Positions 3,346 through 54,151 of a stretch of DNA of 64,000 bases are shown here, in pieces. The DNA is from Candidatus Omnitrophota bacterium (lineage in GTDB: Bacteria > Omnitrophota > Gorgyraeia > JACQQV01). Below the pieces are notes generated by a model. The model was not told the DNA's origin, did not search any database, and was given only the letters and a program-made list of their open reading frames with translations. Positions within the stretch are counted from its first letter, which is position 1. Each line of letters begins with the position of its first letter. The position numbers and the translations under genes are program-made. Location of the stretch: NCBI GenBank assembly GCA_016206785.1, contig JACQQV010000002.1, positions 1,554-65,553 of the forward strand. The letters are read 5' to 3'.

Positions 3346-3347
3346 TG

Positions 3348-4607: not shown

Positions 4608-4620
4608 CCTTCCCCTCCCC

Positions 4621-7017
4621 CTACCGCTCGGACCGTTTGGACCGTTTTCCTGCATGACCCATGACGACTTTTACGCGATGGAGTTTGCCATCGCCGTGAG
4701 GTGGAATAAGATTGGAATGCCACTTTTTCCCATCGAGGAAAATCTGTTTCACACCCTTCTCTACCCCTTCTGGATTGAGAAGTGTGACTTCATACGTTGA
4801 GCCCCGGAAAGGCCTCCGGATCGAGGCCCTTTTCCAATGCCGGGGTAGACACGGATCGATGAGGAGTCCTTCAAATTCCCGACGGACACCGAGGATCCAC
4901 TCGGTCGCCGCGATAAACATCCAGGGGGTGGTCCCCGTATTCCAGGTGAAATTTCCCTCCCCGAATTTGGACCGGGATCCTGGGCCGACGACATATTCCG
5001 CCCAGACATAAGGCTCTGCCGTGTATTGGGTGTGGTCGCTCTTGGCGGGACTCATCGGATAGAGTTTGGTGAACGTTTCATACGCCTTATCTCCCCGCCC
5101 AATGGTACAGTCTGCCACAATTTTGAAGGCACAGGCATGGGAGAAGACCGCCGCGTTCTCTTTCGTCCCTTCTGCAAATGCGGTGACGCGGCCGATGCCG
5201 GGGTTAAATCGGGTATAACTCGGTAAAAAGAGTGCTGGGCCGTATGCGGTATCGAGATATTCATCAATGAGTTTCAAGATCTTTTTCTCACGATCCGGAG
5301 GAGCCACACCGCTTAAGATCGCCCAGGTCTGACTGTTCAAGGGGACCCTTCCTTCTTCATTCTTTGCCGAACCGATCCGATATCCCTCATCATTAAAGGC
5401 GGCGAGATACCACCCGCCGTCCCAGCCGACCCGGTTTATGACTTGGTTTAAGGTCTGGTATTTCTTCCGCATCTCCAGTTCGGTCTTCCGATCTTTCAGA
5501 AAATGGGCGAGGGATTCCATCTGTCTGCAGGCGCGCGCGAGCGCCATGCCAAGCCAGATACTCTCTCCCTTTCCACCGATCCCGACGTGGTCATAGGCGT
5601 CGTTCCAGTCCGCTTTCCGGATAAAGGGGAGTCCATGTTTCCCCCGATGCTGGTAAAGATACCGGACCGCCCGTTTGATATGTTCATAGACAGTGGCTTC
5701 CCCTCCGTCATGAAAACGATATTTTTTCTTGAGAAAGTCAACGTCTCCCGTCTCCTTGATATAAGAAATGATCGTGTACGGGAGCCAGACGGCCACATCC
5801 GCTTTACCGGTCACGACCGCCTGATGATTTTTATCCCAGGAGCCTTCCGAATAGGAAAAACCAGAGACCGCATGGCCCGTATGATACTGGTAGAAAAGAA
5901 GCTTCTCGATTTTCTCTATCGCCGCATCTCTCCGGAGGGCCAGAAGCCCTTCGCTATCTTGGGCGGTATCCCGGTAGCCGAGTCCTCCCTCGGTTCCATG
6001 ATAACTGGAGGTGCCGCGGGAATGGATGATGGCAAAGAGTTGATACTTTCCCCAGATATTCACCATCAGGTCAAAGTTCGGGTCTGGGGTATGAACGCGA
6101 ATCCGATCGACAACCCCCTCCCAATAACTTTTAATGTCCAGAAGCTCTTCCTCGGCCACCTCTTCCCGACGGTATTTCCGTAAATAGGAGGCGGCCTCTT
6201 GGATCGTGCGAGCAAATCCTAAGCAGACCACAAAAGAAACTTCTTCTTTAGGACCGAGATGAAAACGTGACTCAAAGACACCCACCATATCCTCACCGCG
6301 GACCGCGTTTTTCTTCAGGGCCCCCTCACGGATCTCATTGGGGCAAGACAGGTCGTTGTAACGGCCGATGAAACTTTCCTTGGAGGTCTCAAACCCATGG
6401 ATCCGTGCGCTCGTGCTGAAGAAATTAAGCCACTCCGCTTGACCCCGTCGGAAAGGGTACTTCCGGGCAATGATCGCTTTGAGTCGCTCGTCGTAATAGG
6501 CCTCATTATAAAGAGAGAGGATATTCCGATAGCAGGTTTCCAGTTCAATATCCCCAGAAATAAATTCAACGAAAGGATAGGCCCGAATCCGCCGGGGCCG
6601 CTTTTCAAGATTCTTGATCTTGACCATCCAGAGTTCTACGGGGCTATCTTGGGCCACAAGGTAGGTGATCTTTCCTTCAATCCCATTCGCCCGCGAGAGG
6701 AGGGTGGTGTAGCCTAAGCCGTGGCGGGTTTCCCAGGCATCGTACGCTTTGCGAACCGGCTGCCAGTTCACCGACCAGAACTCCCCCGTTTCCTCATCTC
6801 TCAAATACACATACCGGCCGGGGCGATCGGTCTGGATATGCTCGTAGCGAAGGATGCGATTCGACTTTGGGTCGTCGTAGTAACTGTAGCCACCTCCCGT
6901 CTGGGACGTTAAGACGTGATAGAGTTCGTTAAACAGGTAATTGAACCAAGGTTTCGGCGTATCCGGTCGCGTGATGATATATTCTTTCCCGTTTTTCGAA
7001 AAATGTCCGTATTGCAT
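4621..7017 (-). CDS. GH94-family glycoside phosphorylase (cellobiose/chitobiose/cellodextrin phosphorylase-like)
   Basis: The 798-aa ORF starts MQYGHFSKNGKEYIITRPDTPKPWFNYL, which is typical of GH94 phosphorylases, and is long enough for the (alpha/alpha)6 catalytic region. Confidence 0.8.
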   Translation of the reverse strand: MQYGHFSKNGKEYIITRPDTPKPWFNYLFNELYHVLTSQTGGGYSYYDDPKSNRILRYEHIQTDRPGRYVYLRDEETGEFWSVNWQPVRKAYDAWETRHGLGYTTLLSRANGIEGKITYLVAQDSPVELWMVKIKNLEKRPRRIRAYPFVEFISGDIELETCYRNILSLYNEAYYDERLKAIIARKYPFRRGQAEWLNFFSTSARIHGFETSKESFIGRYNDLSCPNEIREGALKKNAVRGEDMVGVFESRFHLGPKEEVSFVVCLGFARTIQEAASYLRKYRREEVAEEELLDIKSYWEGVVDRIRVHTPDPNFDLMVNIWGKYQLFAIIHSRGTSSYHGTEGGLGYRDTAQDSEGLLALRRDAAIEKIEKLLFYQYHTGHAVSGFSYSEGSWDKNHQAVVTGKADVAVWLPYTIISYIKETGDVDFLKKKYRFHDGGEATVYEHIKRAVRYLYQHRGKHGLPFIRKADWNDAYDHVGIGGKGESIWLGMALARACRQMESLAHFLKDRKTELEMRKKYQTLNQVINRVGWDGGWYLAAFNDEGYRIGSAKNEEGRVPLNSQTWAILSGVAPPDREKKILKLIDEYLDTAYGPALFLPSYTRFNPGIGRVTAFAEGTKENAAVFSHACAFKIVADCTIGRGDKAYETFTKLYPMSPAKSDHTQYTAEPYVWAEYVVGPGSRSKFGEGNFTWNTGTTPWMFIAATEWILGVRREFEGLLIDPCLPRHWKRASIRRPFRGSTYEVTLLNPEGVEKGVKQIFLDGKKWHSNLIPPHGDGKLHRVKVVMGHAGKRSKRSER

Positions 7018-40834: not shown

Positions 40835-41622
40835 AAATCCTTTTATCCAATGGAAGCTTTTACCATTTCTCCTGCGAGAAGGTGGCGCAGCTCGCGAAGG
40901 CCTCCGGATTTGACGGCCTCGCCCTCATGATTACACGGGAATTTGAGGGGCGTAACGAAAGAGAACTGGTTGAGAAGTGCCAGAAGATTCTTCCGGTCTT
41001 GTCTATCCATTCTCCTTTCCTTGCACTCAGACATTGGGGAGATCCGATCGATAAAATCGAGCGTTCTGTGGAATTGTGTCTTGCGACCGGCATTCCGCTT
41101 CTCACTTTTCATCCCCCGGCTTGGCTTTTCCTAGAAGTGGGGTTTAGTGTTTGGTTTGCCGGTATCCGCGATTTCCAAGAGGAGGTCGGGAAAAACAGGG
41201 TGATGGTCAGCATCGAAAATATGTCCCGCCTCAAACGTTACTTTTGTGATCCCCATCTTCTTTCACGAACGGCGAGCCTCATGCATTTTATAGAAAAAAG
41301 AAATCTCTACTTAAGTTTCGACAGTTCGCATATGGGAACAAAGAAGGCTGATTTTTTGGAAGACTTCGATCGGCTCTACCAGACGGGAAAAGTGAAGCAG
41401 GTGCAGTATAGCGACTACCGGGACGGCCATGAACACTTAAGACCCGGCCGAGGCGTCCTCCCCCTCGATCAACTGCTTCGATACCTGCATGAAAAGAATT
41501 ATTCAGAGACACTCTGTATCGAACTTTTTCCGGAAGAATTCCCGAAAGAGGAAGAAGCGATTGTAAAAATTCTGAGAGATATCTTGAGAGAAATTCGTGA
41601 GAGAAAGTCTCGTATCTCGTGA
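40831..41622 (+). CDS. sugar phosphate isomerase/epimerase (xylose-isomerase-like TIM barrel)
   Basis: The 263-aa protein has an ATGA overlap with the upstream gene and GGGGAG just before the ATG. Histidine and glutamate residues are spaced as in the AP-endonuclease-2/xylose-isomerase-like fold. Confidence 0.6.
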   Translation: MKILLSNGSFYHFSCEKVAQLAKASGFDGLALMITREFEGRNERELVEKCQKILPVLSIHSPFLALRHWGDPIDKIERSVELCLATGIPLLTFHPPAWLFLEVGFSVWFAGIRDFQEEVGKNRVMVSIENMSRLKRYFCDPHLLSRTASLMHFIEKRNLYLSFDSSHMGTKKADFLEDFDRLYQTGKVKQVQYSDYRDGHEHLRPGRGVLPLDQLLRYLHEKNYSETLCIELFPEEFPKEEEAIVKILRDILREIRERKSRIS

Positions 41623-41671: not shown

Positions 41672-43447
41672 TTAAATTCCTTCCCAATCCATCTTAGAAA
41701 TCAGGAAAAACATCGCCCACCCGGATACTGCACAAAGCGCTGCAGCCATAAGTCCCAAGCGGTACTGCCCCATCACAAGCCACCCGATACTAAAAAGTGA
41801 GGCGTAAATACAGATCGTCCCCAGGAAGAAATTGGTCACCTCCGGCCAACCCAAATGGAGCTTTTTGATGTCCTTGCATTTTCGAGCGATCGGTCCCCAG
41901 AAGCCGCCAGGACGGACATGACGGAAAAATTCTTCAAGCTGTTTCTGCTCCACAGGCTTTGTGAGGAAGGTGACGACGAGCCAGATCACGGTACAAAGAC
42001 CGAGTGTGATGACAAGGCGCACCGCATAATAATCGGGGCCCTGAATGCTTCTAAAATAAGGGGCCTTTTCAAGAGTGAGTGAAATGAATAAAGACGAAAT
42101 CATCGCCGAGACCTCGGACCAGGCATTCACCCGCCACCAATACCAGCGAAGAAGCACCACCAGGGAGGTCCCCACCATCAAAAGCTGGATAAAGAGCCAC
42201 GCCTCGTAAATCGATTTCATCCGCCAGGCGGTAAGCCCCGCGAGAACGGCCATCATGAAGGTGGCGACCTGCGACATAAACACATAGTGCCTCTCCGGCG
42301 CATCTTTTTTCACAAACCGTTTGTAGACGTCGTTAATGAGATAAGAGGCGCCCCAGTTTAAATGTGTGGTAATCGTTGACATGAACGCGGCAAGAAATGC
42401 AGCAACCAGAAACCCTTTGAGCCCCACCGGCAAGAACAGGACCATCATCTTTGGATAAGACGATTCGGGATCTGCGATATTCGGAAAATAGATGAGGGAG
42501 CCAAGCCCCACAATGATCCAGGGCCAGGGCCGAACTGCATAATGGGCGAAGTTATACCAGAGGACCGCAAGCATCGAATGTTTTTCATTCTTGGTGGAGA
42601 AAAGACGCTGCGCCAAAAATCCTCCACCTTCCCCGCCCCCCAACCATTGAAAAAAGATGAAGACAAAAAATGAAAAGACGGCGAGCTTCGTCGCCCCGGG
42701 GGAAGGAACGAAACCGAGAAGTTGATCAGGGGCAACCACCTTTGAAAGGGTCTCTGACGCAGAAAGGGTTTTTGCCGCTGCCACCGATTTCATCGCGAGT
42801 GCAGCCGGCCCCCCCGTTTTCACGACAACGATCACCGCAAGCATGATGCAGCCGAGCATCGCCCAGATAAACTGGAAAAAGTCGGTCACGACTGCTCCCC
42901 AAAGTCCTGAAAGGAGAGTGTAAATGAGTGTCACGAAAACGAGTATCCCTACGGAGAAGGCCTTGTCCCAGCCAAGAAGTTCATGTACGATTTTTGTCAT
43001 GGCAAGGATTACCCACCCCATCGTCACACAGTTGAAGAGGGTGGAACGGTAGAGGGCGTGGAAAAGACGCAGAAGCGACGCCGCCTTCCCGCCATACCGG
43101 AGTTCGACGAATTCGACATCGGTGAGAATTCTTGCCCGTCGCCAGAGCCGCGCATAAAAAAAGACGCAGAGCATCCCTCCCATGAGGCCGCTCCACCAAT
43201 ACCAGTTTCCCTGAATCCCGCGGGTCCGGACAATGCCAGCGATCGCAAGGGGGGTGTCTGCAGCAAAGGAGGTGGCAACGATGGAGGTCCCCGCAAGCCA
43301 CCAACTTAAAGTGCGTCCGGCGACAAAATATTCGGTGAGGCTCCCTGTGGCGCGTTTTGTGTAATAGAGGCCAATCGACAGGGAGAGGACAAAATAGGCA
43401 AGAATGATGAGCCAATCGATGAGGGCGAGAGAGATGATTTCTGGCAT
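41672..43447 (-). CDS. sodium:solute symporter family (SSS) transporter
   Basis: It has 13 or more TM helices and begins MPEIISLALIDWLIILAYFVLSLSIGLYY...EYFVAGR, which is typical of the SSF family. The start was trimmed to 43447. Confidence 0.8.
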   Translation of the reverse strand: MPEIISLALIDWLIILAYFVLSLSIGLYYTKRATGSLTEYFVAGRTLSWWLAGTSIVATSFAADTPLAIAGIVRTRGIQGNWYWWSGLMGGMLCVFFYARLWRRARILTDVEFVELRYGGKAASLLRLFHALYRSTLFNCVTMGWVILAMTKIVHELLGWDKAFSVGILVFVTLIYTLLSGLWGAVVTDFFQFIWAMLGCIMLAVIVVVKTGGPAALAMKSVAAAKTLSASETLSKVVAPDQLLGFVPSPGATKLAVFSFFVFIFFQWLGGGEGGGFLAQRLFSTKNEKHSMLAVLWYNFAHYAVRPWPWIIVGLGSLIYFPNIADPESSYPKMMVLFLPVGLKGFLVAAFLAAFMSTITTHLNWGASYLINDVYKRFVKKDAPERHYVFMSQVATFMMAVLAGLTAWRMKSIYEAWLFIQLLMVGTSLVVLLRWYWWRVNAWSEVSAMISSLFISLTLEKAPYFRSIQGPDYYAVRLVITLGLCTVIWLVVTFLTKPVEQKQLEEFFRHVRPGGFWGPIARKCKDIKKLHLGWPEVTNFFLGTICIYASLFSIGWLVMGQYRLGLMAAALCAVSGWAMFFLISKMDWEGI

Positions 43448-43529
43448 CGGGATTTTTTGTAAGATGAAACGAAAGCCAGAGTAACATAAAAAGATGGTTT
43501 TGACAAGGAGTTTCTTGTAAAATCGAGAG

Positions 43530-45758
43530 GTGCGAATCCCTCGGTTCAATATTTATCTTATCTTACTTTTTTCACTTCTTTTGCTTCTTTCACTTCCATC
43601 CCCCGCCTCTGCCGAAAAAATCACGCTCACTCTCTGGGAATTCTCCGGCTACGAAGAACTGATGCAGGAGCTCCTCAAAAAATTCGAGGCCGAACACCCT
43701 CACATCAGGATCAAGGTGCAGCAACTTTCCTGGGAACATGGTCTTGAAAAGATCATCGTCTCGATCGCTGCAGGCAACGCCCCCGATGTGGTAGAACTTG
43801 GAACCGATTGGGTGCCCAAATTCGCCTCCGCGGGAGTCCTGCGCGACCTCACCGAAGAAACAAAAGACCTTCAAGAGGCTTATTTTCTATGGGAGGCTGC
43901 GACCTATGACAAGAAACGGTTCGGGGTTCCGTGGCTTGCCGGTACCCGTATCCTTTTTTATAACCGCGATCTTTTCAAGCGGGCAGGGCTCGATTCTGAA
44001 AAAGTACCCAAAACATGGGAAGAGCTTCTGGAAGCGGCAAAAAGCATCCGTCGTCTTGGAGAAAATATTTACGGATTTGCCATCTTCGTGGGAGAACCTT
44101 ACAGCCCCTGGCAGGAATTCCTTCCCTTCGCATGGGGAAATGGGGCAAAAATTTTAAGCGACGATCAAAAGCGGTGTCTCATCGACTCACCCGAGATGGT
44201 TGAGGCTCTTTCCTATTATCAGAAGTTAAAACCTTACTCGCTCATCGATCGACAGTCTCAGGTGAACAATCTTTTCGCCGACAACAAAGTAGGAATGCAG
44301 ATCTCCGGTGCATGGAATTTCCGACTTATTCCACGTCTCAATCCGCAGCTTAATTTTGGCGTTGCCCTCCTTCCGAAACCGGCCCCCGACCGGGGTTTCC
44401 CCGCCTCTTTCGCGGGAGGGGAGATCTTCTCGATCCTTAAAAGTTCGCCTCACCCGGAAGAGGCGATGGCTCTCATCCGGTTCATGACCGAAGAAGAAAA
44501 TGCGATTGAGGTTGTAAAACTCCAGCAGAACGTTGTCCCGACGTTTAAGAAAAGTATGGATCACTCCTATTTCAAGACCCATCCTGACCAGCGTCTCTTT
44601 TTCGAACAGATGGCAACCGCCGTCGCCCCTCCGAACCATCCCCTCTGGGTCGACATGCAAGAGCACCTCACCCGAGCCATTGAAGAAGTCATCGTTCAAA
44701 ATACCCCTCCCCAAAAAGCACTCCGTCGCGCCAAGGAGAGAATCGAGAGAATTCTCGTTGAAGAAAAGGCACCGTTTGCACTGAAGGAGCGGGTTGTTGC
44801 GCTTTCGTTGGGCGGCGGACTCTTCCTGATCGGGATGCTTCTTTTCATGCGGAAAAAATCAGCCGTATTTTCGGGGAAGACATTCCTCCGAGAAAATAGG
44901 ACAACATGGATTTTTCTTTCCCCATGGCTTCTGACCTTCCTTCTTTTCGGTCTCTACCCCCTCTTTCATTCCCTCCTCATCAGTCTTTCACGCTATAACC
45001 TTCTGAATGCGGAGGTCACATTTGTCGGTTTCCAGAATTATGCAGCACTCCTTAAAGACAGAGACTTTCATCATGCGTTCTGGCATACCCTTTTCTTTGC
45101 TGCAGGAACTATCCCTTTTACCCTTCTTCTTGCGCTCATCACCGCGATCCTCATCCACCGGAAGATTCCTTTCAAAGGCCTCTATCAGGCGGGCCTTTTC
45201 CTTCCCGTCTCTACCTCTGTGATCGTGATTGCAACCCTCTTCCTCTACCTCTATTCACCCGAGGGCCTCTTCAATGCGCTTCTCGATCAATTCGGTCTTC
45301 CCAAACCGGACCCGACGTGGCTCGTGAACATCCACTTCGCACTACCGAGCATCATGGTGATGAACATCTGGGCCAGTTTCGGTTATTACATGATTTTAAT
45401 CCTGGCAGGACTTCAAGCGATTCCAGAATCTCTGTATGAGGCGGCGGAAATCGACGGGGCGAATGAATGGCAACGGTTTTGGCATATTACACTCCCCCAG
45501 CTCCGCCCGATCCTCCTTTTTGTGGGGGTCATCCAGACCATCTATTCTTTTCAGGTCTTTCCGGAGGTCCTCACCATGACACAAGGGGGACCGTTGGGGG
45601 CTACGACAACGGTCGTCTACCACCTCTATGAGACCGGTTTTCAAAAATTTGAAATGGGCCTCGCCTCGGCGGTCGGATATTTTCTTTTCCTTGTGATCAT
45701 GATTTTTTCCTTGGCTCAAATGCGGCTCTTTAAATTGGGGGAGCAAACCGGGGAATGA
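43530..45758 (+). CDS. fused ABC sugar-binding protein (SBP family 1) and MalF/UgpA-type permease
   Basis: It has a signal peptide, an SBP_bac_1-like domain of about 420 aa, a TM linker, and a 6-TM permease with the EAA motif (ESLYEAAEIDGANEWQ). It forms a single ORF of 742 aa. Confidence 0.75.
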   Translation: MRIPRFNIYLILLFSLLLLLSLPSPASAEKITLTLWEFSGYEELMQELLKKFEAEHPHIRIKVQQLSWEHGLEKIIVSIAAGNAPDVVELGTDWVPKFASAGVLRDLTEETKDLQEAYFLWEAATYDKKRFGVPWLAGTRILFYNRDLFKRAGLDSEKVPKTWEELLEAAKSIRRLGENIYGFAIFVGEPYSPWQEFLPFAWGNGAKILSDDQKRCLIDSPEMVEALSYYQKLKPYSLIDRQSQVNNLFADNKVGMQISGAWNFRLIPRLNPQLNFGVALLPKPAPDRGFPASFAGGEIFSILKSSPHPEEAMALIRFMTEEENAIEVVKLQQNVVPTFKKSMDHSYFKTHPDQRLFFEQMATAVAPPNHPLWVDMQEHLTRAIEEVIVQNTPPQKALRRAKERIERILVEEKAPFALKERVVALSLGGGLFLIGMLLFMRKKSAVFSGKTFLRENRTTWIFLSPWLLTFLLFGLYPLFHSLLISLSRYNLLNAEVTFVGFQNYAALLKDRDFHHAFWHTLFFAAGTIPFTLLLALITAILIHRKIPFKGLYQAGLFLPVSTSVIVIATLFLYLYSPEGLFNALLDQFGLPKPDPTWLVNIHFALPSIMVMNIWASFGYYMILILAGLQAIPESLYEAAEIDGANEWQRFWHITLPQLRPILLFVGVIQTIYSFQVFPEVLTMTQGGPLGATTTVVYHLYETGFQKFEMGLASAVGYFLFLVIMIFSLAQMRLFKLGEQTGE

Positions 45759-46903
45759 ATACCGTGAAATTTAAAGAGTTATGGATCGTGGGAATTCTCA
45801 CCCTTCTCCTCATCTTGACCCTTGCCCCTTTGGTCTTGATGTTCTACTGGTCGGTGAAACCGGGCGGAACGCTCACAAAGCCGGTTCGTGAGATTGTCCT
45901 TACCCCCTCGGATTCCATCCCTCTTCGTCTCGATATGCGAAAATTCACACACCTTGAATTCTTCGTAAAAGGGGAAAAAGGAGGAGAATCTTTTAGGGTC
46001 GTTTTAAAGGATATCCTTGGAAATGAGGTCGCAGTTCCGATTCAAGAGATGCTGAAAGGAGGGGTCTCTCAGGACTGGCAAAAGGTTTCACTTCCGATAG
46101 ATCGCTTTGACCTCTCGCAACTCAATCCCGCGATTCTTGAGAAGGTGGCGGAAGAACTGATGTTTGTCCTCGATAAGGAAGGGGCGGAGAAAATTTTCAT
46201 AAAAGAAGTGCGCCTCGCGTTTAAACGCTTTACCCTTGTGAACTATGTGGATGTCTTGGTCGGCGGGTTTTTCGGACGGTATTTCATCAATAGCCTCCTC
46301 ATCACCCTCGTTGTAGTTTTGGGAAATCTTCTTTTTTCCTCGATGGTCGGTTACGCCTTCGCGCGGAAGGAATTTCCCGGAAAGGAATTTCTTTTCCTCC
46401 TCATCCTCGGAAATATCATGATCCCTTCACAGGTCCTCATGATACCGATCTTTATCCTCATGAAAAATCTCCATTGGCTGAATACCTACTGGGCCCTCAC
46501 GATTCCGGCGCTCGTCGCCCCCTTCAATATCTTCTTCATGCGGCAGTATATCTCGGCCCTCCCCTCCTCTTTGGAGGATGCGGCGCGTATCGACGGGGCG
46601 GGGGACTTTCAAATTTTTTTCCGAATTGTGCTCCCTCTTTCAAAACCGGCCCTTGCGGTCGTCGGGATCAACACCTTCATGGGAAGTTGGAACACATTCT
46701 TGTATCCTTTTCTCCTCACCAATACCCCTGAGATGCGCACCCTTCCTGTGGGACTTGCCCTCTATAAGAGCTTGATGGGGGTTGATTGGGTCCGCCTCAT
46801 GGCCGCCTCCAGCATCACCGCACTCCCTGTGATTCTTACCTTTCTTTTCTTCCAGCGCTACATCATTGCAGGCTTAACCGCCGGCACTGTCACCAAAAAA
46901 TAA
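45755..46903 (+). CDS. MalG/UgpE-type ABC permease with about 150-aa periplasmic insertion related to the VKGEKGGE domain family
   Basis: It has the EAA motif (SSLEDAARIDGAGDFQ) and 6 TM helices. The loop between TM1 and TM2 contains FFVKGEKGGESFRVVLKD...QDWQKVSLPIDRF, which matches the domain found in the proteins encoded at 49164-53355. Confidence 0.75.
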   Translation: MNTVKFKELWIVGILTLLLILTLAPLVLMFYWSVKPGGTLTKPVREIVLTPSDSIPLRLDMRKFTHLEFFVKGEKGGESFRVVLKDILGNEVAVPIQEMLKGGVSQDWQKVSLPIDRFDLSQLNPAILEKVAEELMFVLDKEGAEKIFIKEVRLAFKRFTLVNYVDVLVGGFFGRYFINSLLITLVVVLGNLLFSSMVGYAFARKEFPGKEFLFLLILGNIMIPSQVLMIPIFILMKNLHWLNTYWALTIPALVAPFNIFFMRQYISALPSSLEDAARIDGAGDFQIFFRIVLPLSKPALAVVGINTFMGSWNTFLYPFLLTNTPEMRTLPVGLALYKSLMGVDWVRLMAASSITALPVILTFLFFQRYIIAGLTAGTVTKK

Positions 46904-46937
46904 AAAACGGAGTGACGACCCTATGTCACTCCGTTTA
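46895..46937. terminator. bidirectional rho-independent terminator
   Basis: The sequence is aaaaaataaaaaACGGAGTGACgaccctatGTCACTCCGTtta, a 10-bp stem with an 8-nt loop. The minus-strand reading is followed by a long U tract and the plus-strand reading by UUU. Confidence 0.6.
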
Positions 46938-46955
46938 GAAACCGAAAAACTTAAC

Positions 46956-48209
46956 TTAGTCGCCGGCGCCGACGGTGGTCTTCCGTTCCTCCTTGGTGAG
47001 TTCGAAAATCCTCCGGAAAAGTTTCTCCTCCCGCGCTCCGAGTTTAACCTTCCGACGGGACATAACGCGTTCGGCCACCTCCAACCCCTTCTCGAGTTTG
47101 TAGGTGGTGAGTCCTGACGCGCCTCCCCACGAGAAGGAAGGAATATATTTCGGAGGGAAACCGGCACCGAAGACATTGGAGGAAACACCGACGACGGTTC
47201 CGGTATTTAACATCGTATTCACTCCCGTCTTCGAATGGTCTCCCATCGTAAGCCCGACAAACATTGAGCCGGAATCGACCATCCTCCCATCCACCCAGAC
47301 TTTCACGTTTCCGTAATTGTTCTTAAGGTCACTGTTAGAGGTTCCGGCACCCAAGTTACACCATTCGCCGATATAGGCGTGACCGAGAAATCCGTCATGC
47401 TGCTTGTTCGAGTAAGCATGGAGGATCGAGCCCTCGACCTCTCCTCCTATCTTGCAGACAGGACCGATACTCGTATTTTCATAGATCTTGGCGTTTATCT
47501 TGAGTTTGGTTTCATCCCCGATATAGGCGGGACCCTCAACGACAGAGTTCGGGAAGATCGTTACATTTTCGCCAATGTAGATAGGGCCGTTTTCTGCGTC
47601 GAGCACCACACAGGGTTTAATCTTCGAGCCTTTCCCAATATAGATCTGGGAAGGATTCAAAAGATACGTTCCGTCATAGACCTTGCCGTGGTTTGAACCT
47701 TTTTTCCCTACGAGAAGTTCAAAGTCCCGGACGATCTCGTTTCCATTATTCTGCACAAGGTCCCATGAATACTTGACGAGCTTTGCTTTGACCTTCCGGA
47801 CCTTCACCCCCTTTACGGTCTTGAGGAGCCTTTCTTCAAGGAAGACCTGAGGGGTGACTTTCTTTGCATTCTCCTGCGACAGACGCGCGTAGACGACGGT
47901 ATCATCCTGAACTCCGATCTCCTCTTTTCCTTCAAGAGGAATAACTTCGCCGATGAGGAGCCGGCTGTTGAGGAAAAGGGTGTTTTCTTTCTCAACGGTC
48001 AAGCGGTTTACGCCGAAGGAATCACGACCTTTGAGAAGGTCCGCGATATAGTCTCTGCAGAAAAGGGTGATCGATGCCTTGGGGTATCGGCGGACCACCT
48101 TTTCCTGCAAAAGAAGGATGCCGCAGCGGAGTGCTGAGACCGGCCGCATATAAACAAGCGGAAGGAGTGTGCGATAAGAGGCGTCTTCAAAAATGCGGAT
48201 TTCTTTCAT
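46956..48209 (-). CDS. GlmU-related left-handed beta-helix protein (putative sugar nucleotidyltransferase/acyltransferase, no classical NTP-transferase domain)
   Basis: The N-terminus MKEIRIFEDASYRTLLPLVYMRPVSALRCGILLLQEKV is followed by hexapeptide repeats (IGENVTIFPNSVVEGPAYIGDETKL...). It is homologous to an internal region of the 2256-aa protein. Confidence 0.65.
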   Translation of the reverse strand: MKEIRIFEDASYRTLLPLVYMRPVSALRCGILLLQEKVVRRYPKASITLFCRDYIADLLKGRDSFGVNRLTVEKENTLFLNSRLLIGEVIPLEGKEEIGVQDDTVVYARLSQENAKKVTPQVFLEERLLKTVKGVKVRKVKAKLVKYSWDLVQNNGNEIVRDFELLVGKKGSNHGKVYDGTYLLNPSQIYIGKGSKIKPCVVLDAENGPIYIGENVTIFPNSVVEGPAYIGDETKLKINAKIYENTSIGPVCKIGGEVEGSILHAYSNKQHDGFLGHAYIGEWCNLGAGTSNSDLKNNYGNVKVWVDGRMVDSGSMFVGLTMGDHSKTGVNTMLNTGTVVGVSSNVFGAGFPPKYIPSFSWGGASGLTTYKLEKGLEVAERVMSRRKVKLGAREEKLFRRIFELTKEERKTTVGAGD

Positions 48210-49051
48210 CGCCGGGTTCCCACCTTTTCACGCCGCGCACTTTTCCTGCGGGGCGTCTCCATGGAGCAACACGATTCCTCACGACCTTGCAGCTTCAGGA
48301 TGCTCGGTTCCGCCGGATATTCGCGTGTGAGTTTGCTAGCGGCCGCTTTGTCCGTAATGATCGTGGCTTTCGGATGAAGCTGGACGATAGTCGCCGGAAC
48401 CATCGCGGTAATCGGCCCCTCGACGGTCATTGCGATCGCATCCGCCTTGTTGTCTTTATTGGCGAGGAGGATCAGTTGACGCGCCTCCATGATCGTTCCG
48501 ATTCCCATCGTGACCGCATACCGCGGCACTTCATCGAGTGACTTGAAGAAACGGGCGTTGTCTTGCCTTGTCCGCTCATCGAGCGTTTTCACACGGGTTC
48601 TTGACCCGAGGCTCGATCCCGGTTCATTAAAGGCGATGTGGCCGTTGGCACCGATTCCCAAAAGCTGGATATCGAGCCCACCGGCCTTCTTGATCTTTCT
48701 CTCATACGCCTCGCAGGCGGCTGGAATGTCGTCCGCCATCCCATTGGGGACGTTGGTATTTTGCTTCTTAATGTTGATGTCCTTAAAGAGGTTTTTATTC
48801 ATGAAATAGCGGTAACTTTGATCGTGATCGGGGAGAAGTCCAACATATTCATCAAGGTTAAATGTCGTGACCTTGGAGAAATCAAGCCCTTCATTTTTAT
48901 GGAGACGGATGAGTTCTTTGTAGGTTCCGACCGGGGTGCTTCCTGTTGCGAGTCCCAACACACAGTTGGGTTTTTTGCGGATGAGATCCGCGATGATCTG
49001 GGCCGCAAGGGTGCTCATTTCTTCGTAACTATCCTTGACTATGACTTCCAT
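48206..49051 (-). CDS. nagB: glucosamine-6-phosphate deaminase
   Basis: It has the NagB signature GLATGSTP and LGIGANGHIAFNEPGSSL. GGAGG sits 7 nt before the ATG. A C-terminal extension of about 30 aa overlaps the next gene (ATGA). Confidence 0.85.
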   Translation of the reverse strand: MEVIVKDSYEEMSTLAAQIIADLIRKKPNCVLGLATGSTPVGTYKELIRLHKNEGLDFSKVTTFNLDEYVGLLPDHDQSYRYFMNKNLFKDINIKKQNTNVPNGMADDIPAACEAYERKIKKAGGLDIQLLGIGANGHIAFNEPGSSLGSRTRVKTLDERTRQDNARFFKSLDEVPRYAVTMGIGTIMEARQLILLANKDNKADAIAMTVEGPITAMVPATIVQLHPKATIITDKAAASKLTREYPAEPSILKLQGREESCCSMETPRRKSARREKVGTRR

Positions 49052-49071
49052 GTTTTTCCTCCTTTAATAAG

Positions 49072-49101
49072 CCCCGTTAGAAATGTCCATTTCTAACGGG
49101 G
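49072..49101. promoter_or_regulatory. perfect 14-bp inverted repeat with 2-nt loop upstream of nagB RBS
   Basis: The sequence read directly is CCCCGTTAGAAATGtcCATTTCTAACGGGG. It lies about 10 nt upstream of the nagB GGAGG. Confidence 0.4.
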
Positions 49102-49163
49102 TAAGCAAATGATTTAAGGCAAATTTTTATTTTAAGAGATATACCTCTTTTTGTCAAGTCCCC

Positions 49164-49769
49164 TCATTCCAACATCAAATCGTCAATATATATAGACCCC
49201 TGCCCTGCTCCGCCCGGAAAACACTCGGTTTCAAAGCAGATGGCGATCGCGGCGATCTCCGAAAGATCTATCCCGAAAACATCGAGGGGAATAGAGGCCC
49301 GTTGCCAATCGGTCGTGATCTTCCCTTCCGGAAGATAGGTCCCGACATCTTCTGACTTTACGGTATCGTCCAATTCATCCCAGTGGCGATCCGAAATTCC
49401 TATCCGGAAATTTTCATCCCCCTTCGCCCCCTTCACCCAGAAATGAAGGATCTTAAAATGGCTTGCGTCTAGGTGTTTCTCGGCGATCTTCACGCGGGTG
49501 TAAAATCCGCACCATCCTCCTTTTCCATAAGGTCCCCCGACCCCTTTCTTGTCATAATCGAGTTTGAGTGCCTTTCCCCCCGGATCATGGCTTACCTCTG
49601 CGCTGACCGTGGCGACCGCCCGCGAAGGGGCCTGCTGATAGACGCTGGAGGCGCCCCCGAGGACATTGGACCGTTTGTCAAATTTGTGGATGATAAATTC
49701 CTCGGCAAATGCACACGTTCCTAGCGACAAGAAACAAGCGACAAGAAACGGTGTCTTTTTCACAACCAT
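49164..49769 (-). CDS. secreted protein with one VKGEKGGE-type beta-sandwich/CBM-like domain
   Basis: It has a signal peptide (MVVKKTPFLVACFLSLGTCAFA). The domain contains LDYDKKG...GWCGFY...FWVKGAKGDENFRIGISD...YLPEGKITTDWQRASIPLDVF. GGAGG is immediately 5' of the ATG at 49769. Confidence 0.7.
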   Translation of the reverse strand: MVVKKTPFLVACFLSLGTCAFAEEFIIHKFDKRSNVLGGASSVYQQAPSRAVATVSAEVSHDPGGKALKLDYDKKGVGGPYGKGGWCGFYTRVKIAEKHLDASHFKILHFWVKGAKGDENFRIGISDRHWDELDDTVKSEDVGTYLPEGKITTDWQRASIPLDVFGIDLSEIAAIAICFETECFPGGAGQGSIYIDDLMLE

Positions 49770-49831
49770 CCTCCTGCAGTTCGGAGTGGGGAGTTGGGAA
49801 TGTGGATTCCACACTCCGCATTCCGCACTCA

Positions 49832-51028
49832 TCATTTCCTCAAATGGAATTTTAAGTCGTCGATATATAAAACCCCTTCCTGTTTCTTATAAAAATTGAT
49901 GACAAAAGATCCCATCTGGGAGAAATCGAGGAGACCGAAATCTTGCAGAGGAATCGTGACCTCTTGCCATTCGGTGGTGACCCCTCCGGGAAGATATGCT
50001 TCAATCGGTCCCGCCTTCACTGAATCTCCAATCGTGAGCCAATTGCGATCCGCCATCCCGATTTCAAAGATCTCTCCCCCCCTCTCTCCCTTCACCATAA
50101 ACGTGAGCCTGTCATACCAGGAAAGGTCGAAGAAGGCGCCGTCAATTTCATTGAGAAGCGTATAGTACCCGCACCAACCGGTCCCTTCTTTTTGATAGGA
50201 AAGCTGTAAAGAGCGCCCCTTTCCTCCCCAGCGAGGTTCAGAAACGTGATTGAAGACGCAAACGGAAGGAAGTTTTTTGTAGCAGTTCGTCTTCCGACCG
50301 AGGAGATTTAAGTCATCATGATCAAAGTTGTCGAGGAGAAGATACCCCTGCTTTTCGATCTCCGCTTCCCGGTCGACCCTCTGCTCGGTGTGAAAGGTCA
50401 CTTCATCAATCCAGAAAGCGCCCTTTCCTATTTCGTTAAAATGAAAAACAATGCTGTACACCCGTGAAAGATCGGGGCCGAACCAGTCGCTTAATGGAAC
50501 TGCGACGCGCTGCCACTCGGTCGTAATCCCCTGCGGGAGGTATCGATAGATCGAACCGACAAAGACGGCATCCTCGCGCTTATTGGAAATAACGTCGTTC
50601 AAGCCCAGCTCAAACGTCTCCCCTCCCTTTTCTCCTTTGATATAAAACGTCATTGTTTTGTATTGAGAAAGATTCGCCATAATAATAAGGTAGGTGCCAA
50701 CAAATTCTTTCTCGCTCCGCCGGTCGTAAAGATATTTGACCGCTTCCTTGTCTTTCCCTTCCGGGTAAAACATCGTACCGTCGACAAAACAGCCGTATCG
50801 GGAAGGTTCGAGATTAAACCCGCCGATCCGCCCTCGGAACCCGAATTTTCGCTCTGCGGGAGTAAGGAAAGTATCTTGAGGAAGTGGGGGAAGATCTTTA
50901 AGCAGGATCGACTCCGCCCATGTGGGGGTAATGAGAAGGAGAAGAACAATAAGAGCGTATTTCGTATCTCGTGAAGCGTGAAGCGAGATACGCTTCACGA
51001 ACGACGAACGACGAGATTTATTTCTCAT
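49832..51028 (-). CDS. secreted protein with two tandem VKGEKGGE-type domains
   Basis: Copy 1 reads FYIKGEKGGETFELGLND...YLPQGITTEWQRVAVPLSDW. Copy 2 reads LSYQKEGTGWCGYY...FMVKGERGGEIFEIGMAD...YLPGGVTTEWQEVTIPLQDF. The start overlaps the upstream stop (ATGA). Confidence 0.7.
   Translation of the reverse strand: MRNKSRRSSFVKRISLHASRDTKYALIVLLLLITPTWAESILLKDLPPLPQDTFLTPAERKFGFRGRIGGFNLEPSRYGCFVDGTMFYPEGKDKEAVKYLYDRRSEKEFVGTYLIIMANLSQYKTMTFYIKGEKGGETFELGLNDVISNKREDAVFVGSIYRYLPQGITTEWQRVAVPLSDWFGPDLSRVYSIVFHFNEIGKGAFWIDEVTFHTEQRVDREAEIEKQGYLLLDNFDHDDLNLLGRKTNCYKKLPSVCVFNHVSEPRWGGKGRSLQLSYQKEGTGWCGYYTLLNEIDGAFFDLSWYDRLTFMVKGERGGEIFEIGMADRNWLTIGDSVKAGPIEAYLPGGVTTEWQEVTIPLQDFGLLDFSQMGSFVINFYKKQEGVLYIDDLKFHLRK
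50960..51015. repeat. Copy C of the CGTGAAGCG / CGCTTCACGAACGAC palindromic repeat family (inside 5' coding end)
   Basis: The sequence is tcgtatctcgtgaagCGTGAAGCGagataCGCTTCACGaacgacgaacgacgag. It encodes the SSFVKRISLHASRDT n-region of the signal peptide of the 49832-51028 gene. Confidence 0.55.
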
Positions 51029-53355
51029 TTCAACTCCAGGGTCCCGAACGTCGTCGGATCCCCCCAAATCCTATTGGTAGACGTGGAGATGAGACACTTC
51101 TGGGGGGCGCGGGCGTCATCTGTATCACTCACGTCGACACTTATCCCGAACTTTCTCCCCTTTACAAGCCGGGTATCGCTTCCTTTCTTCGCGGTGGCAA
51201 AAAGAATCTTCGTAGGGATGCGCGCCTCCAGGGTATACCCTCTTTCTATTTTCTTTGCAGCAACGGTCGCCTCCAAAAGGAGCGTCTTGTCGAGGGGAGG
51301 GGTCCATAAATAAAGTTCGGGTTTCAACGTTCCAAAATTACCGGGGCTTAACCCAAACTGAAAATCATCATCACTATTCACCGCTTCTGTATAATCTCCT
51401 TCAAGATCCATATCGAGCCAAATTTCCACGTGGTCCCCTTCCCAAAGATCCTCTCCTACCTTCTCCTGTGCCAACCGATCATCAAAGACGGCGACAGCCA
51501 GATAAAGGGCTCCTTCATCCCAACGGACCGATGCTTTAAAAGAGAGGTCCTTCTTTCCCCGCCAGGCCCCCTGCCCATAGACAACGTTTTCTTTTTCCTC
51601 AACAGTCGGCGCCTGGATCAACTCTTCCCATTCAAAGAGATCTCCGTCGGTAGTGACCGGTTTCGAGACCTGCATCGCATCGACCGTATAAAAGATTTTT
51701 CTTTCCTTTGTAGGAACGTTACGGCTTTTCTGAAGGTTTTTGTAACTGGAATAATGATGAATCGAAAATCCTTCGAAGGAAGAATAGGCCTCTACTCCTT
51801 GGGCAACCTCTTTCAAGACCTCCTCCATCCCCTCCCACCCCTCCTCAAAAAAGGTGTTGCGCCGACCGCCCTGCTTCATGGCAACAAGGTCTTGCGTCTC
51901 GACGCCGATCGACACCTTCTTTCCCATCGCCTCGGCCAATTGAAGGTGCGAAACGGCATTCCCTCCGATTTCCCTAACGGTGTCGTAGTAATCCATGAGT
52001 GCAATCGTGTCGACCGCCTCAAAAATCGACTTTTCGAATTCGGGTCCCTCCGCATCATAGAAAATAGGGGCCACCACGCCAAATCGGAACTTCTGATCGG
52101 GATACTCACCCAAGAGGGCTCTGATCTTTTTCAAGAGCGAAAGGAAACTCGCCTTCACTTTCTCCCGATTCTCATTCCACGCTTGATCGAGATACGGCTC
52201 GATATCCAGGGAAATCCCGTCCATGCGTGCCTCGACCGGGCGCTTCTGGTTAAACTCGAGAAAGGCACGGATCCATTGAAGCGCAACGGCGTGATTTTCT
52301 TCAAACTGCCAGATCGGGTTTCCGGTCAAAGCTTCGATGCGCAGCTTCCGCTTGTGCGCCTCTCGCAAAAATCCTTCCAGATGCTCAGCATACTTCGGAT
52401 CTTCCTTTTCGGAAAACTCCCCGATATAGAGGTAGAGATTTTGAATCCCTGTACGATCGCACAATTCAAAAAGTTCTTTGCGGGCCTTCAAGTTTTGCGC
52501 CGGATCGATATTCCAGACCCAGAGACTTCGGGGATGAAGCGGATCTCTCAAGGCGCGGGGGGCGTTTTCCAAAAGGATCCTTTCCACCTCGGGATCGTTT
52601 TTAAACAGGACGTCTTCAAGGTAAATACGGCCCCTCCCTTCGTAACGGAACCAAAGGACAAAAGAGCCCATTTCTGAAAGGTTCATCTCTGCGGCCAGTT
52701 TGGTCATTGGAAGCTTGACCTCCTGCCACTCGGTCGTTACCCCTTTCGGAAGAAAATTGTTGACCGATCCGAAATAGACAGCGTCGATGCCGAGGTCCTG
52801 CATCCTTTGATCCGCAAGACCGATGTCAAACACCTCCCCTCCCTTTTCACCCTTTACCCAGAAAGAGAGGGTATTCAAACCCGATACATCGATCCCAGCC
52901 AAAAGGTTATAGTATCCGCACCATCCCCCATCCTTATAGTAGTCGATTGCAAGTCCACGTCCCTTTTCCCCTCGACGCACAGTGTCTGATTTGGAAAGAA
53001 GTGAATAGGAAGGACGGTGCGCCCAGCTCCCTTGGTAACTTCCAAGCGAATTGAAACGCTCGGTGAAAATGCCGCTTGTGGCACCGAGATCAAAGTTGTC
53101 GACCAGGATACTTTGGGGAACAATCTCCACCTCTACTTCCGGTCCGGGTGCCTCGGAAGGGGCCTCAGTCATTTCCTTTGGAAGAGGAGGATAAAGACGG
53201 AAGGCGGCTTCTTGTTCAGGAACTGTTTCGAAAGGACGGCCTTTGTGAAAACGAGGACTCACCAAAAGGATGATCATGATAAGGGCAAGTAACAAAAAAA
53301 CCCCTAGGAGAATGAGTTCTTTTCGAATCCCTCTGAATCGTTTTTCCGGCGTCAT
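51025..53355 (-). CDS. membrane-anchored multidomain glycan-active protein: VKGEKGGE domain + TIM-barrel-like hydrolase-like region + CBM9-like C-terminal domain
   Basis: It has an N-terminal TM segment (ILLGVFLLLALIMIILLV). The VKGEKGGE domain reads YYKDGGWCGYYNLL...FWVKGEKGGEVFDIGLAD...FLPKGVTTEWQEVKLP. The C-terminus (GDLFEWEE...GALYLAVAVFDD...GDHVEIWLDMD...RIWGDPTTFGTLEL) resembles CBM9/DOMON-like modules. Confidence 0.65.
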   Translation of the reverse strand: MTPEKRFRGIRKELILLGVFLLLALIMIILLVSPRFHKGRPFETVPEQEAAFRLYPPLPKEMTEAPSEAPGPEVEVEIVPQSILVDNFDLGATSGIFTERFNSLGSYQGSWAHRPSYSLLSKSDTVRRGEKGRGLAIDYYKDGGWCGYYNLLAGIDVSGLNTLSFWVKGEKGGEVFDIGLADQRMQDLGIDAVYFGSVNNFLPKGVTTEWQEVKLPMTKLAAEMNLSEMGSFVLWFRYEGRGRIYLEDVLFKNDPEVERILLENAPRALRDPLHPRSLWVWNIDPAQNLKARKELFELCDRTGIQNLYLYIGEFSEKEDPKYAEHLEGFLREAHKRKLRIEALTGNPIWQFEENHAVALQWIRAFLEFNQKRPVEARMDGISLDIEPYLDQAWNENREKVKASFLSLLKKIRALLGEYPDQKFRFGVVAPIFYDAEGPEFEKSIFEAVDTIALMDYYDTVREIGGNAVSHLQLAEAMGKKVSIGVETQDLVAMKQGGRRNTFFEEGWEGMEEVLKEVAQGVEAYSSFEGFSIHHYSSYKNLQKSRNVPTKERKIFYTVDAMQVSKPVTTDGDLFEWEELIQAPTVEEKENVVYGQGAWRGKKDLSFKASVRWDEGALYLAVAVFDDRLAQEKVGEDLWEGDHVEIWLDMDLEGDYTEAVNSDDDFQFGLSPGNFGTLKPELYLWTPPLDKTLLLEATVAAKKIERGYTLEARIPTKILFATAKKGSDTRLVKGRKFGISVDVSDTDDARAPQKCLISTSTNRIWGDPTTFGTLELK

Positions 53356-53401: not shown

Positions 53402-54151
53402 GGGACTAAGTCCCTCCTGCGGTTAGACCCTTCCCCAAGCCTACCGAGACCCATTAAAAAAATCTAACTTTTTTGCAAGAAAATTTAACATTTTTACGTC
53501 ATGTATATTAGGAGCCTTGCTTATGATGAAAGGAGAAAACAATGCCCAGAACACATAGAGACGTATCGGATCCCGGTCTATACCACATCATCAATCGTGG
53601 AAACAATAGAATGCAAATCTTCCGAGACAACGATGACTACCAACATTATTTGAGACTCCTCAAAAGGTATAAGTCTTTGTTTAACTTCAAATTATATGCA
53701 TTTTGTCTGATGCCGAATCATGTCCATCTTCTCCTCGATACAATCGGCCCTCATAAAGGGGCCTCCCAGATCATGCATCGGCTCAACCTCGCCTATAGCA
53801 GTTGGTTTCAACTTCGCTATGAGTGGAAAGGCCACGTATGGCAAGGGCCGTTTCATAGTCTTCTCATTGACAAAGAGCGATACCTCTATGCCTGCGCAAG
53901 ATACATTGAATTGAATCCCTATCGAGCAGGTCTTGCCAGAGATCCAGTTGACTATCCATGGAGCAGTTTCCGCGACCATTTGCTTCCAAAGAGTTCTGGC
54001 CTGCTTGACCAACAGGAAATGGCTGATTATCTCTCATTAGGCCCAGACGAAAAATTCATCCAGGTCTACTCCGATCTTGTTCAATCCAGCCTTAGGGAAC
54101 AAGTCTAAGGCTCCTTGGGACTAAGTCCCAGCACAGACGGGACTTAGTCCC
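53402..54151. mobile_element. RAYT (REP-associated tyrosine transposase) unit with flanking GGGACTAAGTCCC hairpins
   Basis: One GGGACTAAGTCCC copy lies at 53402-53414, upstream of the gene. A doublet lies downstream: GGGACTAAGTCCC at 54117-54129 and its reverse complement GGGACTTAGTCCC at 54139-54151, separated by 9 nt and followed by TTTTT. Confidence 0.6.
53542..54108 (+). CDS. REP-associated tyrosine transposase (RAYT; IS200/IS605 Y1 TnpA-like)
   Basis: It has the HUH motif (PNHVHLLLD) and a catalytic Tyr region (YIELNPYRAGL). At 188 aa it has the size of a RAYT. AGGAG sits 7 nt before the ATG. Confidence 0.8.
   Translation: MPRTHRDVSDPGLYHIINRGNNRMQIFRDNDDYQHYLRLLKRYKSLFNFKLYAFCLMPNHVHLLLDTIGPHKGASQIMHRLNLAYSSWFQLRYEWKGHVWQGPFHSLLIDKERYLYACARYIELNPYRAGLARDPVDYPWSSFRDHLLPKSSGLLDQQEMADYLSLGPDEKFIQVYSDLVQSSLREQV

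Follow-up and report, generated by a model that had tools for sequence, protein, structure and literature searches.

The transporter, the exported proteins and their shared domain

The window, a stretch of 64,000 nucleotides from a Candidatus Omnitrophota bacterium (GenBank assembly GCA_016206785.1, contig JACQQV010000002.1, positions 1,554 to 65,553 of the forward strand), encodes a lineage-specific oligosaccharide uptake system in which four proteins carry the beta-jelly-roll fold of carbohydrate-binding module (CBM) family 30. One of the four is a membrane subunit of the transporter itself, a MalG-type (CUT1) ATP-binding cassette (ABC) importer permease of 382 amino acids with a periplasmic P1 loop of about 140 residues (45755..46903, plus strand; PF00528, 70.5 bits). 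The other three are exported proteins encoded on the minus strand, which we call A (49164..49769, 201 residues), B (49832..51028, 398 residues) and C (from 53355 down to 51025). A preliminary description of this DNA, made from the sequence alone, had reported one domain repeated in these four open reading frames, and all four were present where it had placed them.

We counted the copies of the domain with a hidden Markov model (HMM) of the N-terminal domain of protein C, made from 96 homologous sequences, using as the target all 482 six-frame fragments of at least 60 residues. The model scored 301 bits on protein C, 93 and 134 bits on two domains of protein B, 102 bits on protein A and 40 bits on the permease (E 4.5e-12, HMM positions 77-174). 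The total was five copies, four in the three exported proteins (one in A, two in B, one in C) and one in the permease, which is the number first proposed; no sixth copy was found among the fragments scanned.

As judged from its sequence, the domain is not new and belongs to the established family CBM30, for which Pfam has a 170-position model (PF21582, gathering score 27). The Pfam scores of protein B (74.6 bits, in two stretches), the permease (35.2 bits) and protein C (29.5 bits) were all above the gathering score, and that of protein A (26.8 bits) was slightly under it. The CBM11 and CIA30 models of the same superfamily matched more weakly. In profile comparison with the solved CBM30 of C. 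thermocellum (CtCBM30, PDB 1WMX/2C24), the protein C family reached E 4.4e-11 and the family of permease inserts E 3.4e-5. The printed alignments placed the CtCBM30 sequence 'LEFDIKGKEGGEDFVIGFRD...VTTDWQHVKIPLRD' on the motif signature given in the preliminary description; the hallmark motifs common to CBM30 and the window domain are 'LEFDIKGKEGGEDFVIGF', 'VTTDWQHVKIPL' and 'GWW', and the 'SGWWISLL' strand of CtCBM30 aligned to 'GWCGWYTLL' of the exported copies. CtCBM30 is said, in work of Najmudin et al. from 2006, to hold its glycan chain on a platform of three tryptophans on the concave face. Both similarity to the founding CBM30 modules and the beta-jelly-roll (beta-sandwich) fold of the family were found in the window domain. 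The domain had been foreseen as possibly mapping to a known CBM family of known specificity; the family part of this came true, through the hallmark motif, and the specificity part did not. Characterised CBM30 members bind beta-1,4-glucan and xyloglucan (PMC10992016), and this beta-glucan specificity is not transferable to the window domain because the identity to CtCBM30 is remote, at only about 21%.

The permease itself could be assigned at the family level only, since its scores against the NCBIfam models GlcU (122 bits), UgpE (121 bits) and MalG (100 bits) were each below the equivalog cut-off. It has the BPD_transp_1 core, an EAA loop with the motif 'EDAARIDGAGDFQIFFRIVLP' in its translation, and similarity to MalG, UgpE and GlcU. 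Hydrophobic segments span its residues 11-29 and 171-199, and the three NCBIfam models align to it solely from residues 157-176 on. By homology to MalG and UgpE, the insert between the first and second transmembrane helices (TM1 and TM2) lies in the periplasmic loop P1, in agreement with its original placement. The loop is predicted to hold a short-form CBM30-like beta-sandwich at residues 33-170 (45851..46264, plus strand).

The permease insert is a true homologue of the exported CBM30-like copies. In BLASTP comparisons, it matched protein B with 54 bits (35% identity over 92 residues), protein A with 48 bits and protein C with 41 bits. A profile of 119 permease inserts matched the CBM of the protein C family over 94 columns with 99.3% probability and E 3e-20, and an AlphaFold2 model of residues 33-170, computed from a 43-sequence alignment, showed seven strands with a pLDDT of 83.5 and a pTM of 0.76. 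Chance or low complexity, the explanation that the preliminary description had itself named as a possible refutation, was ruled out by the profile-profile comparison, the fold and the six-frame HMM evidence. The copy had also rightly been called shortened: just about positions 77-169 of the 170-position Pfam model are matched.

The permease is paired with a fusion protein. The gene directly upstream, which overlaps the start of the permease gene by 4 nucleotides, encodes 742 residues (43530..45758, plus strand) comprising a signal peptide, a sugar-binding protein (SBP_bac_1, 170 bits, residues 44-325), an extra transmembrane helix and a MalF/UgpA-type permease (BPD_transp_1, 72 bits, residues 532-729). 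Hydrophobic segments were found at residues 8-26, at residues 422-440 (the extra helix) and further within residues 461-729. Positions 7-287 of the UgpA model align to residues 452-733, so the fusion is without a large P2 loop. A fusion of this kind, 732-769 residues long, lies directly upstream of the insert-bearing permease in six of six loci (the window, L007, L009, L011, L012 and L013). The closest solved relatives of its binding-protein domain are 5CI5, which is uncharacterised, and Lin1841 (5YSB), which we take to be a binder of sophoro-oligosaccharides. The domain also matches 6FFL, a Bdellovibrio MalE-MalF fusion domain, with 67 bits, and it is not NgcE- or DasA-like (NgcE, 21.6 bits).

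Among the exported proteins, A has a single CBM30-like domain (about nucleotides 49170-49682) behind an N-terminus, 'MVVKKTPFLVACFLSLGTCAFA', that resembles a signal peptide. Protein B is non-catalytic and has two such domains (about nucleotides 50369-50725 and 49844-50308) after one N-terminal hydrophobic segment (residues 25-43). Protein C combines, in this order, an N-terminal anchor, a CBM30-like domain, a central domain and a CBM9 domain. Its single strongly hydrophobic segment (residues 14-32), which we read as a probable membrane anchor, is followed by a linker (53119..53355, minus strand), the CBM30-like domain (residues 80-260; 52576..53118, minus strand), the central catalytic-like domain (about residues 265-560; 51676..52563, minus strand) and the C-terminal CBM9-like domain (residues 596-776; 51025..51570, minus strand). 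The last of these matched PF06452 (CBM9_1) with 69.3 bits and PDB 1I82, an endo-1,4-beta-xylanase A, with E 1.8e-7. The CBM9-like tail was thus correctly recognised at first sight, and the TIM-barrel-like middle proposed with it finds only indirect support in a profile match to PDB 10yv and a weak GH18 match.

The sole solved relative of this central domain, PDB 10yv (E 6.9e-13), is listed as a 'putative GH97 from Cellulomonas fimi' (GH, glycoside hydrolase). The Pfam GH18 model (PF00704) reached 15.7 bits against a cut-off of 29.6 (E 0.012, residues 373-462). The domain has the motifs DGxSLDVEPY, MDYYD and GVETQD, and across 45 homologues of protein C the residues D384 and E486 never vary, while at least 90% keep E386. 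We rejected an assignment to GH18, in view of the score below the cut-off and of the family motif DxxDxDxE, which here reads D-G-I-S-L-D-I-E, with the middle Asp changed to Ser and the D-x-E kept. GH97 was rejected as well, the evidence falling short of what defines this family. From its sequence, a glycoside hydrolase-like catalytic domain at the centre of protein C is plausible. At least 97 Omnitrophota proteins, 30-100% identical to protein C and with the weakest alone below 45%, conserve this central domain, for which Pfam has no model. The C-B-A trio is conserved too (L002/L003 and L004).

The CBM30-like folds of A, B, C and the permease could in principle have given up sugar binding and serve as a protein-protein scaffold, associating with one another and holding the three exported proteins at the transporter. 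The absence of a catalytic domain from A and B and the presence of the module in several co-clustered proteins would fit such a role, as would the weak Pfam matches to the related CIA30 domain; CIA30 is an assembly factor of respiratory complex I. The exported copies, however, retain the full set of CBM30 hallmark residues, W145, G147, Y149, W166, G169, G172, E174 and W210, all invariant across the 45 protein C homologues. Moreover, protein C also has a CBM9, and the trio occurs in L004 with no such transporter within the 10-kb flanks. We consider a scaffold highly improbable.

Long and short inserts across the Omnitrophota

The permease is identical to P0249, annotated as a 'carbohydrate ABC transporter permease' of Candidatus Omnitrophica, and window proteins are identical to the proteins P0002 and P0249 of a Candidatus Omnitrophica metagenome-assembled genome. 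A homologue search with the full-length permease gave 3045 matches, from the best 120 of which lengths and sources were read, the taxonomic range being based on source names only. All named relatives among these 120 came from Omnitrophica/Omnitrophota. Each measured 375-455 residues, compared with 272-296 positions in the GlcU, UgpE and MalG models, and is therefore long enough for an insert; in many, PF00528 and PF21582 had been precomputed together. A word-indexed search with the N-terminal 196 residues had given a single match and made the permease look almost unique. We discarded this as a sensitivity artefact, since the full-length query listed 120 insert-bearing relatives.

A HMMER search with the insert profile against 1.84 billion cluster representatives gave 355 matches, mostly multi-copy exported proteins, and the inspected ones included only about five permease-type clusters (at 50% identity). 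A related-locus profile search with a two-sequence insert alignment gave one weak locus, L014. We found no paper in the searchable literature that describes a CBM inside an ABC permease loop, and literature searches for Omnitrophota together with CBM or chitobiose found nothing relevant. The insert architecture is already auto-annotated in databases, yet without any study that we could find. The arrangement with a CBM30 in P1 appears to be conserved across the phylum Omnitrophota and was found only there, which bears out the first impression that a module in a permease loop is unusual.

We then aligned the inserts of 120 permeases, that of the window and those of 119 relatives. Long inserts of about 186-191 residues occurred in 89 of the 120, and short ones of about 136-156 residues in the remaining 31. 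The long inserts matched the CBM of the protein C family over 159 columns (E 6e-26) and covered the whole domain, including the N-terminal strand 'VADFexG..NSIGG' and a strand 'WWTR' that corresponds to 'GWCGWY'. The window insert, of about 136-141 residues according to where its ends are drawn, is without an N-terminal part of about 45-50 residues that includes the conserved Trp-Trp strand (GWW / GWCGWY). The permease P0253 is 64% identical to that of the window and has a long-form insert, and a neighbour-joining tree of the transmembrane core placed the long form at its root and implied four parsimony changes; in it the short forms come close to making up one group, interrupted by a single long form. 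On account of P0253 and of this tree, the short form of the window is, as far as the sequences tell, derived, by one to four deletion events.

Residues that at least 90% of the inserts share make up the motifs D-x-R-K-F and E-x-x-A-E ('DMRKF' and 'PEKxAE'), both absent from the exported copies, and in some inserts the KGExGGE motif or the Trp of TTEWQ is gone. We read the insert-specific motifs together with the lost CBM30 motifs as indications that the loop module has come under a new constraint. In the maltose system of E. coli, cross-linking placed MalG-P1 and MalF-P2 on the N-lobe of MalE (PMC6906923), and this contact makes docking at least as likely a role for the module as glycan capture. 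Because the insert occupies the very loop where MalG-P1 contacts the binding protein, we propose that the loop module is a domesticated CBM which positions the tethered binding protein, and possibly a glycan or oligosaccharide, over the pore, and we give this proposal about an even chance. The module would then be a functional analogue of the MalF-P2 domain.

Alternatively, as the preliminary description held, the P1 module might be a working CBM that binds periplasmic glycan or oligosaccharide directly and passes it on, either to the tethered binding protein or into the pore, so that the permease shares in recognition. In favour of this, the insert is genuinely homologous to CBM30 and its fold was predicted with confidence; the window insert and most others retain the Trp of 'TTEWQ' (as 'DWQKV'); the long-form 'WWTR' strand lines up with the 'GWCGWY' of the exported copies and with the 'GWW' of CtCBM30; and a shared ligand is plausible with co-clustered exported proteins that use the same fold. 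Against this, the region of the Trp-Trp strand is missing from the window form and the other short forms, which shows an intact CBM to be dispensable in 31 of the 120 aligned permeases; several inserts are without the hallmark KGExGGE or Trp; the best-conserved insert positions are the insert-specific motifs rather than CBM30 hallmarks; and the literature searches produced no precedent. We regard direct capture as possible though on the doubtful side. The long form predominates in the phylum, keeps the Trp-Trp strand and may still bind glycan; for the short form of the window a docking or structural function is the likelier one, with an affinity for glycan that would be residual at most. That the P1 module, at least in its long form, binds a periplasmic glycan chain and hands it to the tethered binding protein seems to us rather doubtful.

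Gene neighbourhood and candidate cargo

Around the transporter genes lie NagB, a glucosamine-6-phosphate deaminase (48206..49051, minus strand; TIGR00502, 330.5 bits, cut-off 236.9), an alternative bacterial GlmU with the activities of a UDP-N-acetylglucosamine (UDP-GlcNAc) diphosphorylase and a glucosamine-1-phosphate acetyltransferase (46956..48209, minus strand; TIGR03991, 434 bits, cut-off 225), and a protein of the sodium:solute symporter family, SSF (41672..43549, minus strand; PF00474, 128.6 bits). A second group of minus-strand genes comprises an archaeal-type GlmM (2005-3411; TIGR03990, 490 bits, cut-off 439), a NagC-like ROK protein with a helix-turn-helix domain (3348-4655; NagC, 174 bits, below the cut-off), a GH94 disaccharide phosphorylase (4621..7017; PF17167, 341 bits, and PF06165, 227 bits), a second NagC-like ROK protein (7084-8328) and a conserved protein of 337 residues (8411-9424). 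Family models thus confirmed nagB, the symporter and the binding-protein/permease fusion as members of the cluster, and the amino-sugar link suggested by the preliminary description is strengthened by GlmM, GlmU and the NagC-like ROK proteins of the window and by NagA in related loci.

Several of these genes recur beside other insert-bearing permeases. GH94 lies at most 7.5 kb from the permease in L007, L009, L011 and L013, and NagC-like ROK proteins are neighbours in the same four loci. A true NagA (TIGR00221, 259-348 bits, cut-off 226) occurs in L007 and L011, directly after the orthologous permease, and in L012, nearby on the opposite strand. Further neighbours in L009 are PGM/GlmM, NagB and SSF, and the SSF gene there abuts the orthologous permease. 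L013 has a single co-directional cluster in the order fusion, insert-permease, 337-residue protein, GH94, ROK, A-like, C and B, and thereby links the exported CBM30 proteins with the transporter.

Given the Nag and Glm neighbours, the likely cargo is an oligosaccharide containing N-acetylglucosamine (GlcNAc). We propose that the CBM30 modules of A, B and C would first bind a beta-linked GlcNAc-containing glycan, which protein C would trim outside the cytoplasmic membrane. The tethered binding protein would then take up the oligosaccharide for import, and its cleavage by the GH94 phosphorylase would yield a sugar 1-phosphate together with a free sugar. From there, one route would be catabolic, through the NagC-like ROK protein, NagA (in related genomes) and NagB, and another would lead through GlmM and GlmU to UDP-GlcNAc.

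A number of observations weigh against this scheme. The gene neighbours are the sole basis for the cargo, and the catalytic-like centre of protein C fits no family that we tried. The best solved relatives of the binding protein are not chitobiose binders. No ABC ATPase (ABC_tran) was found among the non-overlapped window open reading frames of at least 200 residues that were scanned; it is common for CUT1 systems to share an ATPase encoded elsewhere, and we assume this here. At the positions that we take to form its +1 subsite, the GH94 enzyme has R...F ('GRVT[AS]F') in five Omnitrophota orthologues, where CtCBP has E...Y ('GEISTY') and the Vibrio chitobiose phosphorylase F627...V631. The GH94, ROK and GlmM genes of the window lie 37 kb from the transporter, with an exopolysaccharide (EPS) synthesis cluster between, and protein C homologues in L006 stand beside sugar-nucleotide and glycosyltransferase genes.

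The 37-kb separation across the EPS cluster and the context in L006 raise the possibility of envelope-glycan processing, in which C, B, A and the transporter would trim the cell's own exopolysaccharide or cell-wall glycan and recycle it to UDP-GlcNAc, rather than take up environmental or prey glycans. The window genes do adjoin a cluster of the Wzx/Wzy type (Wza, Wzc, Wzy, Wzx and glycosyltransferases), and the protein C homologue in L006 is found among GT4, epimerase, aminotransferase and Bac_transf genes. Proteins with PEP-CTERM domains lie upstream of the transporter in L013, GlmM and GlmU are biosynthetic, and the hydrophobic segment of protein C fits a membrane anchor. The neighbours that recur across genomes (GH94, NagA, NagB and the NagC-like ROK proteins) are, by contrast, catabolic or connected with uptake, and the EPS cluster is absent from the 8-10 kb transporter flanks in L007, L009, L011 and L013. 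We consider envelope processing unlikely.

The GH94 orthologues (window 4621-7017, minus strand; L007 15013-17499; L009 2270-4732; L011 15465-17912; L013 12220-14595) deserve a separate comment. The similarity to cellobiose phosphorylase (CBP, 463 bits) and to chitobiose phosphorylase (ChBP, 1V7V, 461 bits) was nearly the same. We rejected an identification as N,N'-diacetylchitobiose phosphorylase, as the scores showed no preference for ChBP and the ChBP-type residues F627/V631 are not there; the cellobiose type was likewise not fitted. The GH94 enzymes linked to the transporter form a distinct subgroup, whose conserved Arg may point to an unusual, perhaps anionic, acceptor. From this Arg, one might speculate that the cargo is a GlcNAc-containing disaccharide with an anionic sugar, such as a cell-wall fragment from other microbes.

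The conserved 337-residue protein belongs to a family of 332-344 residues that stands beside the transporter, GH94 or ROK in L007 (12475-13473), L009 (6373-7380), L011 (12909-13922), L012 (11293-12327) and L013 (11202-12215). The window member is 39-48% identical to these five counterparts, and searches of Pfam, NCBIfam and PDB gave no match for the family. It has an 'FFWDEPHF' motif, and it may represent a glycosidase-like enzyme of the cytoplasm that has not been described before.

The remainder of the window holds further features. The large Wzx/Wzy-type cluster (about 10500-39500) between the GH94/ROK/GlmM genes and the transporter encodes Bac_transf, several GT2 and GT4 enzymes, Wzy, Wzx, PMT_2-type transferases, a sulfatase-like protein, a methyltransferase, a split Wzc and Wza with TPR repeats. 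A DUF294 nucleotidyltransferase and a xylose-isomerase-like TIM-barrel protein (39560-41622, plus strand) stand between the export genes of this EPS cluster and the SSF symporter. Beyond gene C, an IS200-type Y1 transposase (53542-54108, plus strand) precedes a giant gene (54157-60927, minus strand), whose 2256-residue product joins a nucleotidyl transferase, a DUF4954 left-handed beta-helix and an amino-acid-kinase domain. In L002, L007, L009, L011 and L012, too, the loci are flanked by DUF4954 proteins (600-3342 residues), and in L007 a Y1 transposase gene (1716-2330) adjoins the DUF4954 gene. Three open reading frames on the minus strand, 61046-63994, 18743-20815 and 14523-15182 (982, 690 and 219 residues), had no Pfam match at E <= 0.001, and scans of the window showed neither tRNA genes nor Rfam families.

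Significance and relation to known systems

ABC sugar importers are thought to recognise their cargo through a soluble or tethered binding protein and a site in the membrane domain, and to our knowledge extra periplasmic domains of the membrane subunits, such as MalF-P2, have been known only as docking elements. What is new here is that loop P1 in the MalG subunit of a type I ABC importer holds a CBM-family fold, in company with a tethered binding protein, and that this combination is conserved in the Omnitrophota. It amounts to a natural experiment in two respects, one being how accessory periplasmic domains tune the docking of the binding protein or the hand-off of substrate, the other the re-purposing of a CBM, complete and truncated forms of which coexist. 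The conserved and uncharacterised gene set (A, B, C, the fusion, the CBM-bearing permease, the 337-residue protein, the GH94 subgroup and the Nag genes) opens a concrete way into the carbohydrate physiology of this uncultivated phylum. If capture and hand-off by the loop module were true, the Omnitrophota, ultra-small and possibly host-dependent, would possess the first ABC importer whose membrane subunit includes a carbohydrate-binding module, a self-contained machine to 'capture, bind and import'.

The founding member of CBM30 is that of C. thermocellum Cel9D-Cel44A (CelJ; PDB 1WMX/2C24), and the modules of the known members are appended to secreted cellulases. The present copies differ in standing in a context of GlcNAc metabolism and in that one of them, shortened in the window, sits in the loop of a membrane transporter. 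As for protein C, its central domain and PDB 10yv have the motifs 'LDVEP' and 'IG(V/L)ET' in common; 10yv is uncharacterised, 168 profile positions align, and protein C adds the CBM30, the CBM9 and the membrane anchor.

Chitobiose utilisation relies on a (GlcNAc)2 ABC importer together with a GH94 N,N'-diacetylchitobiose phosphorylase, NagA, NagB and NagC/NagK. The loci described here resemble the chitobiose systems of Vibrio and Streptomyces (DasABC/NgcEFG) in having an ABC importer, GH94, ROK, NagA, NagB and a phosphosugar mutase. Unlike these systems, they have the R...F pair of GH94 in place of F627...V631 of ChBP, a binding protein that is tethered and not NgcE- or DasA-like, and a permease with a CBM.

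The maltose transporter of Bdellovibrio bacteriovorus, in which MalE is fused to MalF (PDB 6FFL; Licht et al. 2019, cited in PMC6906923), is a characterised case of such a fusion. It is likewise a CUT1-type importer from a Gram-negative bacterium, and its MalF-type subunit carries one fused binding domain. The similarity to the fusion of the window is distant, and in the review (PMC6906923) no CBM-type insert is mentioned for its MalG partner.

Another likeness to the arrangement of the permease is the P2 domain of MalF in E. coli MalFGK2-E, which is also a folded extra domain in a periplasmic loop of a transmembrane domain of a type I ABC importer. MalF P2 is an immunoglobulin-like domain in MalF, and we know of no carbohydrate-binding ancestry for it; here, in contrast, a CBM jelly-roll sits in the MalG subunit, and the partner MalF-type subunit has no P2. 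MalF P2 lies against the binding protein, and MalG-P1, the loop that bears the insert in the Omnitrophota, also cross-links to MalE (PMC6906923).

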